From a virus (taxonomy: Duplodnaviria; Heunggongvirae; Uroviricota; Caudoviricetes): a DNA stretch of 64,000 nt. The translations under genes and the position numbers were made by a program. Position 1 is the first letter of the stretch; each line of letters begins with the position of its first letter. The DNA is taken from IMG/VR virus record IMGVR_UViG_2563366895_000001, positions 1-64,000 of that record. One strand, written 5' to 3'. A model generated the notes under the pieces. That model saw only the letters and a list, made by a program, of their open reading frames with translations. It was not told the DNA's origin and did not search any database. Positions 32,474 through 32,977 of this stretch are shown here, one piece after another.

Positions 32474-32505
32474 TGGTGATGGTTGATGGAATTGAACCGC
32501 CGTAG
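32474..32505 (-). tRNA. tRNA-Thr-like gene, 3' portion (variable region, T-arm, acceptor 3' strand, CCA)
   Basis: Minus strand CTACGGCGG-TTCAATT-CCATC-AACCATC-A-CCA: G53/T54/T55/C56/A58/C61 present; acceptor 3' strand pairs 6 of 7 with GATGGTG of the 5' portion. Confidence 0.5.
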
Positions 32506-32925
32506 CTATTTCTTTATATCCAATAAACCTGCGTGGACTTTTCTGTGGCAATTCGCACAGAGGACAATGTACTTCCTTACTTCTTCCTTAAGTCGCTTTC
32601 GAGATCGACTACATAGGTTAGAAGGATCGCCTTCTTTGCCGCCAGGGTTATCATGGTGGAGGTCCAGAACTATAGGTTCTTTTTCTCCACAATTTTGGCA
32701 CCCGATGAAGCGTTTATAACGAGATAAAAACTGACGGTTTGAACTTGTTTTTCTCGTTCTTGTTAACTTTATAAGCCGGCGCCTTGATTCATTGCTTGCA
32801 TAACTCAGAGCATCTCTTTCCTTGGCGCACACCTTGCAAATATTTTGCAGGCCATCGCTCTTTCCTTTGTTTTTATGGAAATCGGAAGCAGGTTTTAGTG
32901 CTTTGCATTTGCTACAAATTTTCAT
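32506..32925 (-). CDS. HNH endonuclease encoded between the two tRNA portions
   Basis: 139 aa; CSKC...CKVC zinc ribbon then HNH core LDLHHDNPGG...N...CANCHRKVH; ATG 9 nt after the tRNA 5' portion, stop abuts the T-arm. Confidence 0.7.
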   Translation of the reverse strand: MKICSKCKALKPASDFHKNKGKSDGLQNICKVCAKERDALSYASNESRRRLIKLTRTRKTSSNRQFLSRYKRFIGCQNCGEKEPIVLDLHHDNPGGKEGDPSNLCSRSRKRLKEEVRKYIVLCANCHRKVHAGLLDIKK

Positions 32926-32934
32926 CAGTATCCC

Positions 32935-32977
32935 ACTGCTTACAAGGCAGACGCTCTAACCACTGAGCTACACCATC
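32935..32977 (-). tRNA. tRNA-Thr(UGU)-like gene, 5' portion (acceptor 5' strand, D-arm, anticodon arm)
   Basis: Minus strand GATGGTG-TA-GCTC-AGTGGTTA-GAGC-G-TCTGC-CTTGTAA-GCAGT: U8, A14, G18G19, U33, anticodon TGT, A37. Confidence 0.6.

Follow-up and report, generated by a model that had tools for sequence, protein, structure and literature searches.

What becomes of a transfer RNA (tRNA) gene when the gene of a putative homing endonuclease lies in the middle of it? This question is raised by a locus in the IMG/VR virus record IMGVR_UViG_2563366895_000001, of which we analysed positions 1 to 64,000 (the window, to which all coordinates refer). The window is a P1-like (punavirus) plasmid prophage and contains, at 32474-32977, a tRNA-Thr(UGU) gene in two parts, separated by an open reading frame (ORF) for an HNH endonuclease; all tRNA and HNH features are read on the minus strand. 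In our view, this is quite probably an intron-less HNH homing-endonuclease cassette of the free-standing type with tRNA-Thr genes as its target; it lies within the body of such a gene, a phage tRNA-Thr(UGU), which it would have turned into a pseudogene.

A tRNA-Thr(UGU) gene interrupted by an HNH endonuclease gene

The 5´ part of the tRNA (positions 1-43; 32977-32935) reads GATGGTG TA GCTC AGTGGTTA GAGC G TCTGC CTTGTAA GCAG T. Its positions 1-26, comprising the acceptor 5´ strand GATGGTG and the D arm (32952-32977), have the sequence of the P1 gene trnA(Asn), and positions 27-42 (32936-32951) can be read directly as a Thr-type anticodon arm, TCTGC CTTGTAA GCAG, with the anticodon UGU. A 9-nt spacer, GGGATACTG (32934-32926), leads to the HNH gene (32925-32506 in the ORF list), which encodes 139 amino acids plus stop, with the ATG at 32925 and the TAG at 32508-32506. 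The junction and ribosome-binding region, TGGGATACTG (32926-32935), lies immediately 5´ of the start codon and was delimited in an alignment of five alleles. The 32-nt 3´ part (32505-32474), CTAC GGCGG TTCAATT CCATC AACCATC A CCA by direct reading, consists of the end of the variable loop (CTAC), the T arm (GGCGG TTCAATT CCATC), the acceptor 3´ strand (AACCATC), A73 and the CCA. It is followed at 32427-32473 by a flank which, by comparison with the alleles L039 and L043 and with P1, was brought in with the cassette; the first ~33 nt of this flank are TATACCAATGTGATGATTCTGCCGGTACGA...

Of the 429 nt of the insert, 420 belong to the ORF and only the remaining 9 nt are non-coding. An earlier note on this DNA, made from the letters alone, had described the split tRNA-Thr(UGU) with the same coordinates, and direct reading of the sequence reproduces them to the base. 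The pairing of the acceptor strands at six of seven positions, also described there, was confirmed (G7.A66 is the mismatch), and further non-pairs, C51.A63 in the T stem and U27.U43, have to be added. Judged against an intact, near-identical tRNA-Thr (L009), the cassette of the window takes the place of tRNA nucleotides 43-47 (5 nt).

ARAGORN detected no tRNA gene in the intact 64-kb window and none at any of the HNH-allele loci, including the lambdoid ones described below; the Rfam tRNA model matched the 5´ part only, with 26.8 bits at a threshold of 29. With a tRNA finder run with and without the insert, a type of check named in the earlier note, only the joined parts are called as tRNA-Thr(tgt). 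Altogether 992 junction combinations of both parts were built in silico, and ARAGORN called a tRNA in 565 of them, mostly tRNA-Thr(tgt). The joined products of 75-78 nt reached scores of 115.9-117.3, compared to 121.0 for P1 trnA, 119.9 for P1 trnT and 112-122 for real phage tRNAs; their variable loop would consist of cassette nucleotides.

The identity set of bacterial threonyl-tRNA synthetase (ThrRS) comprises G1-C72, C2-G71, G4-C69, G5-C68, G35 and U36 (PMC9976931). The window tRNA has A2-U71 where this set has C2-G71 and contains the remaining identity elements, and the lambdoid alleles have the complete acceptor identity set. Since homologous alleles have complementary acceptor, D and T stems around the same ORF, the resemblance to a tRNA is real and not due to chance. 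The interrupted locus also explains a recurring mis-annotation: in RefSeq plasmids identical to the window, PGAP reports a 99-nt "tRNA-Thr" (32974-32876, minus strand; L003 1627-1725), which begins at tRNA position 4, ends within the HNH ORF and arises as an artefact from the orphan 5´ part of the tRNA.

That the insert encodes a 139-amino-acid HNH endonuclease, as the earlier note had it, agrees with the match of the protein to PHROG 2255 "HNH endonuclease" (E=2.7e-38, residues 1-134). A second match was obtained with PHROG 3106 (E=1.8e-15); the Pfam HNH model (PF01844) remained with 12.3 bits (E=0.2) below its cut-off of 21.4, and a PDB sequence search with the HNH protein gave no match. The ORF sequence contains HH..N..CANCHRKVH as well as two CxxC pairs, and a tblastn search with a query coverage of at least 80% returned 203 phage records, with several of the top matches among those listed annotated as HNH endonuclease. 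The gene is equipped with a ribosome-binding site and an ATG of its own and is in frame with no host ORF. It is 139 codons long in all five alleles, and the ratio of non-synonymous to synonymous differences per site (pN/pS) between the window and the other alleles is 0.13-0.22, at a pS of ~0.35. Because of this constant length and the low pN/pS, we conclude that the nuclease gene is maintained by purifying selection.

Distant homologues of the protein (48-63% amino acid identity over the full length) are free-standing and located in tRNA arrays of virulent phages (Felixounavirus, Certrevirus and others), with 50-56% identity for those that adjoin intact tRNA-Thr(UGU) genes; in Felix O1-like phages, homologues carry the annotation HNH endonuclease. 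ORF47 of Felix O1 (L030) follows a tRNA-Gly and stops 1 nt short of an intact tRNA-Thr(UGU), and the homologues in L046 and L047 stop 1-2 nt short of an intact tRNA-Thr(UGU). In a Pectobacterium/Enterobacter phage lineage the homologue stops 4 nt short of a tRNA-Cys, and one Felix-like paralogue overlaps a tRNA-Leu. Since three independent juxtapositions with tRNA-Thr(UGU) were found among about 20 tRNA species, the family appears to be specifically tied to this tRNA; the prediction is that the HNH enzyme recognises the DNA of tRNA-Thr genes.

Lambdoid alleles and the origin of the chimeric locus

The closest non-identical HNH proteins are 86% identical to that of the window. Together with two metagenome contigs from a search for the junction pattern, they provided four further alleles (L038, L039, L042 and L043). 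L038 lies between the Q antiterminator and holin genes and L039 downstream of a DNA methylase gene, these being the two of the four with a context on record, and we read all four as late regions of lambdoid prophages. Each of them has one tRNA-Thr(UGU) gene surrounding the same cassette. The 5´ side reads GCTGGTT TA GCTC AG..GGTA GAGC G CCTGC CTTGTA(A), then T(T/G)G(A/G)CC(A/T)AGGATACTG ATG, and the 3´ side AAATAG CTAC GGCGG TTCGATT CCGTC AACCAGC A CCA. The 3´ junction AAATAG-CTAC-GGCGG is the same in all alleles. At the 5´ junction, GGATACTGATG, just before the HNH ATG, is identical in 5/5 alleles, and no stretch of the alignment varies more than the 8 nt in front of it (those preceding GGATACTG).

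The acceptor, D and T helices of three of the four lambdoid alleles (L038, L042 and L043) pair at every position (7/7, 4/4 and 5/5, respectively). The earlier note had taken the two portions as belonging to one tRNA gene; this is the case in the lambdoid alleles, which show a single tRNA-Thr, but not in the window itself with its trnA-derived nucleotides 1-26. The intact tRNA-Thr L009 reads CTTGTAA GCAGG ATGTC GGCGG. This GCAGG is absent beside the anticodon loop in the lambdoid alleles, in which the cassette replaces about 9 nt (positions 39-47) compared to L009. Since the 3´ strand of the anticodon stem is thus replaced, no simple excision restores a normal tRNA. The only possible excision product would have 97 nt, formed via a GCAGG inside the ORF, and would carry a poorly paired variable region of 26 nt. 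HNH-less alleles of L038 and L039 were not found in complete E. coli genomes; related Q-holin regions in E. coli genomes hold tRNA-Asn and tRNA-Arg instead.

Two stretches of the cassette do not vary among the five alleles, in which the synonymous divergence is 0.09-0.36. One is the first 32 nt of the cassette, GGATACTGATGAAAATTTGTAGCAAATGCAAA (32894-32935, minus strand), within which a hairpin UUUGUA-GCAAA-UGCAAA is predicted, the other a stretch of 33 nt, AATTGCCACAGAAAAGTCCACGCAGGTTTATTG (32509-32541, minus strand), 16 nt upstream of the stop codon. Their invariance could stem from recombination, translational control or target mimicry.

In P1 and P7, trnA(Asn) is located downstream of dmt and is followed 2-5 nt on by trnT(Thr); in other P1-like plasmids the order is Asn or Arg, Tyr, Thr. 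The HNH allele is present in 7/557 matching P1-like plasmids of PLSDB and in 4/580 complete E. coli genomes, and the remaining P1-like loci contain intact tRNA-Asn or Arg, (Tyr) and Thr genes. The cassette is therefore polymorphic for presence and absence. A comparison with the trnT region of P1 had been suggested in the earlier note; P1 has trnA and trnT, and it turned out that in the window this array is replaced, not simply interrupted.

The borders of the replacement are visible in the alignments. Megablast identity to P1, P7 and other phages enters from upstream and ends at 32952, which is tRNA position 26, and this break falls under the tRNA-Asn annotation of these phages. Over positions 1-26, an IMG/VR variant of the window allele (L015) is identical to P1 trnA at 26/26 nucleotides. 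The anticodon arm of trnA, GTTGA CTGTTAA TCAAC, differs from that of the window, the string of which is also found in intact phage tRNA-Thr genes (L009, L010 and L012). The 3´ part agrees with that of the lambdoid allele L043 at 29/32 positions and the next 33 nt at 32/33; this flank of ~33 nt is common to L039 and L043, is absent from P1 and occurs in PLSDB only in the seven HNH-bearing plasmids. By comparison with L034 and L036, the P1-like backbone restarts at CGAAACGGAG.GCACAACAG (32426), a module that L043 has downstream of its tRNA. Judged from these sequence comparisons, the window tRNA is a chimera of trnA nucleotides 1-26 and a lambdoid-type anticodon arm, HNH gene, 3´ part and flank. 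The 3´ tRNA part and flank that accompany the ORF are consistent with co-conversion; ordinary recombination would give the same result.

Three states of the 3´ part are specific for the window, A57, A63 and U71, and all of them are the state of P1 trnA. U71 pairs with the trnA-derived A2, A63 produces the C51.A63 mismatch, and donor and trnA states alternate along the 3´ part. We read this pattern as probable patchy conversion with trnA and not as compensatory selection.

These observations can be combined in the following model. The mobile unit would consist of the ribosome-binding site, the 139-amino-acid ORF and the stop codon, and would take the place of the 3´ strand of the anticodon stem and of most of the variable loop. 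The enzyme would cut the DNA of a cassette-free tRNA-Thr gene, an activity comparable to that of T4 SegB, and repair of the break would copy the cassette together with adjacent flanks, with conserved tRNA segments giving the homology. The P1-like lineage probably took the block from a lambdoid-type phage, whereby the resident trnA-(Tyr)-trnT array would have been replaced. The left junction would be located in the shared D arm (...TAGCTCAG.GGT.AGAGCG) and the right junction in the shared downstream module starting at 32426. The outcome would be a fusion of trnA nucleotides 1-26 to the Thr anticodon arm, with the usual trnA-(Tyr)-trnT array deleted. Transcription of the HNH gene probably occurs together with the former tRNA/ban operon, and the tRNA is most likely a non-functional remnant. 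Loss of the tRNA would be tolerated, because phage tRNAs are accessory genes.

Rival readings and the fate of the tRNA

Disruption of the tRNA gene by insertion of a homing endonuclease gene is the explanation we favour with reasonable confidence. The earlier note had offered it as one of two possibilities, and the inactivation it assumed remains preferred, although the insertion cannot have been a clean one, given the replaced tRNA nucleotides. For the other possibility, an unusual split or spliced tRNA, no positive support was gained.

Several observations weigh against the disruption. The insertion event itself is not directly documented in the P1 lineage: a search of IMG/VR, the GTDB genomes and PLSDB with exact and degenerate patterns of the 5´ arm and the 3´ end returned only HNH-bearing copies or ordinary trnA(Asn), and no insert-free copy of the exact chimeric tRNA, the allele for which the earlier note proposed to check in related phages. 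In the cloverleaf, 97% of the acceptor, D and T cells are paired across the five alleles. The 32-nt 3´ part shows 0-3 differences where a pS of 0.17-0.36 predicts about 5-11 (0/32 observed and ~5.6 expected for L038 and L042; 3/32 observed and ~11 expected for the window and L042). In addition, U71 of the window, which faces the trnA-derived A2, looks compensatory. The pairing, the low divergence of the 3´ part and A2-U71 could reflect selection on the RNA fold. We do not find this convincing, since conservation is just as high in the non-tRNA flank and at the two ends of the ORF, and the covariation score, with a single compensatory pair, is not above that of shuffles (103/500). Furthermore, the flanks would be renewed whenever the cassette homes again into an intact tRNA-Thr gene, and their low divergence thus needs no selection on the interrupted RNA.

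Selection on the fold would imply that the tRNA pieces fold around the nuclease message, resulting in a tRNA-scaffolded mRNA or, less likely, in a two-piece or spliced tRNA-Thr that is active in decoding; taken together, we regard this as unlikely. In the scaffold version, to which we give a small chance, the tRNA-like ends would enclose the HNH message, and RNase P and 3´ trimming would excise and stabilise the transcript without any decoding being implied. The acceptor, D and T helices of L038, L042 and L043 are intact although the local anticodon stem is not, which would fit a scaffold, as would the tRNA parts diverging less than synonymous sites. RNAalifold moreover closes the insert in all five alleles with a pairing of the 5´ strand CCTGC with a GCAGG near the end of the ORF, and constructs joined at this distal GCAGG reach ARAGORN scores of 120-130. 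However, this GCAGG encodes a conserved His-Ala-Gly and is likewise present in 4/5 homologues outside tRNAs, the covariation is not significant, and the non-tRNA flanks are conserved to the same degree. The acceptor and T stems of the window are mismatched, and repeated homing into intact tRNA genes would yield the same conservation. We therefore treat the CCTGC-GCAGG pairing as coincidence. A model built on it, with an intron after loop position 38 and a 3´ exon starting at the distal GCAGG, was rejected, since GCAGG codes for the His-Ala-Gly of the HNH motif and occurs in the homologues that are not inside tRNAs, and the resulting variable region of 26 nt has only 3-5 A-U pairs.

A functional interrupted tRNA-Thr, from which the insert is spliced or cleaved and ligated out, or of which the two pieces associate non-covalently and are charged, seems very unlikely to us; if such a tRNA did decode, it would be the first example of a genes-in-pieces tRNA from a bacterial virus. 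The scores of the joined halves, called as tRNA-Thr(tgt) close to real phage tRNAs, and the compensatory-looking A2-U71 pair speak for it, and insertion of a homing endonuclease gene can leave a working split gene, as reported for nrdA of phage Aeh1 (PMC3045599). On the other hand, C2-G71 is missing in the window and three stem positions are mismatched, no ribozyme was detected, and the lambdoid alleles lack the local 3´ strand of the anticodon stem and could give only the 97-nt product. Bacteria are not known to possess a protein tRNA-splicing endonuclease of the archaeal or eukaryal type. In the literature searched, neither a phage tRNA that an endonuclease gene has split nor any split tRNA in a phage or bacterium came up.

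We give hardly any credence to a self-splicing intron, of group I or another type, whose unusually compact core overlaps the ORF, and here the view of the earlier note that this is not a standard group I intron is well supported. Bacterial tRNA genes are classic group I sites, phage introns often carry HNH ORFs, and the tRNA homology of the lambdoid alleles is lost after loop position 38, in the region of the anticodon loop that serves group I introns as insertion site. Nevertheless, Rfam searches with permissive filters gave no group I (Intron_gpI), group II or ribozyme family at E<=10 in the three alleles searched (window 31800-33800, L038 and L043), and 9 non-coding nucleotides are all that the nearly completely coding insert offers. 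The 5´ junction, which would have to form the P1 helix of the intron, is the least conserved part of the alignment, and no contiguous excision restores the exon sequence in the lambdoid alleles. It is also highly improbable that the two tRNA-like pieces are unrelated remnants beside a free-standing HNH gene that never inserted into a tRNA. In the window, nucleotides 1-26 do come from trnA, a gene other than that of the 3´ part, and the relatives of the HNH gene are normally intergenic in tRNA arrays. But this explanation is largely refuted by the four lambdoid alleles, in each of which the same cassette is enclosed by one tRNA-Thr whose acceptor strands match perfectly; L009 is an intact tRNA-Thr of nearly the same sequence, and the anticodon arm, 3´ part and flank of the window travel with the cassette.

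Related systems and neighbouring elements

The closest analogue in behaviour is T4 SegB, a free-standing GIY-YIG endonuclease of the T4 tRNA cluster, which recognises the T-psi-C motif of tRNA genes, cleaves these at their 3´ ends and is inherited together with flanking tRNA genes (PMC2330249). Similarly, the HNH gene lies in a phage tRNA array and is present in some relatives and absent in others, its 3´ junction in the window directly adjoins the T arm, and flanks move together with the cassette. In contrast to SegB, the predicted nuclease of the window is of the HNH and not the GIY-YIG type, and whereas SegB is located between intact tRNA genes, the window-type cassette lies inside the tRNA body, from which 5-9 nt are removed.

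By sequence, the closest relatives in a known system are the HNH genes of the Felix O1 type, which belong to the same protein family (PHROG 2255) and adjoin tRNA-Thr(UGU) in Felix O1, L046 and L047. They differ from the window cassette in that they are intergenic, with the stop codon 1-4 nt before position 1 of the tRNA, and leave the neighbouring tRNA intact. The tRNA-Thr(UGU) genes downstream of the homologues in L046 (1916-2003) and L047 (1922-2006) are intact, 85-88 nt long and have a long, class II-like variable arm, which is unusual for a tRNA-Thr; in L047 this arm contains AAGGATAC, which is similar to the ribosome-binding region AGGATAC of the cassette. In a P1-like contig (L040 1-290), the HNH ORF lacks its 5´ end and is fused to the apparent end of an IS transposase gene, which yields a chimeric "protein" of 134 amino acids (P0004). 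According to this fusion, the cassette can decay after insertion.

Interruption of a tRNA gene is also known from the bacterial group I introns in the anticodon loops of tRNA-Leu(UAA), tRNA-fMet, tRNA-Ile and tRNA-Arg, and phage group I introns often encode HNH endonucleases. The window differs from them in that it has no detectable ribozyme core, in the position of the break (after position 42/43 and not in the anticodon loop) and in that tRNA nucleotides are replaced, not just interrupted. In Aeromonas phage Aeh1, mobE splits nrdA, and the two protein fragments are reported to reassemble into an active enzyme (PMC3045599). Here as there, a free-standing endonuclease gene was put directly into a host gene, without intron or intein; the split gene of the window, however, encodes an RNA, whereas in Aeh1 protein halves reassemble. 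Archaeal split and intron-containing tRNAs (Nanoarchaeum and others) need bulge-helix-bulge motifs, a splicing endonuclease and a ligase (PMC4090602). They resemble the locus in that the 5´ and 3´ portions are apart in the DNA, and the lambdoid break lies near the canonical 37/38 site. Enterobacteria are not known to have any of these elements, nor was one seen at this locus, for which no search aimed at bulge-helix-bulge motifs was made.

Homing endonuclease genes normally sit in introns, inteins or intergenic gaps and thereby spare the host gene. The HNH clade described here lies beside tRNA-Thr(UGU) in virulent phages and inside tRNA-Thr(UGU) in temperate ones, without a ribozyme, and provides a natural case for studying the fate of an RNA gene split by a selfish element. 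Cassettes of this type would reshape the arrays of accessory tRNA genes in P1-like and lambdoid prophages; in the window, Asn and Thr tRNAs have been erased.

The tRNA arrays of P1-like plasmids vary in other respects as well. In the first tRNA slot (L004 1624-1700 compared to L005 1624-1698), the same acceptor stem and T arm, GATGGTG...GGTGG TTCGAAT CCACC CACCATC G CCA, are combined with the anticodon arm of either Asn(GTT) or Arg(TCT) and with differing D and variable loops, which looks like a swapping of anticodon arms within one tRNA body. A T-arm-like hairpin, GTAGAG TTCGACT CTCTAC, is located at 32376-32394 (minus strand) in a conserved module (32340-32415) that reads CACAACAG.TAAGAGC...GCTCTT.CCGTTGTG. 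P1-like plasmids have this module behind their tRNA arrays, and its start recurs downstream of L043. It might be either the remnant of a tRNA or a tRNA-like element involved in processing.

A second homing element is present within 1 kb of the HNH cassette. The Dmt-like bifunctional DNA methyltransferase (33653-36694, minus strand) has 1013 amino acids compared to the 754 encoded by the 2265-nt coding sequence of P1 dmt, and its C5-methylase domain is split by an intein with matches to Pfam Hint_2 (residues 77-126) and LAGLIDADG_3 (residues 298-361).

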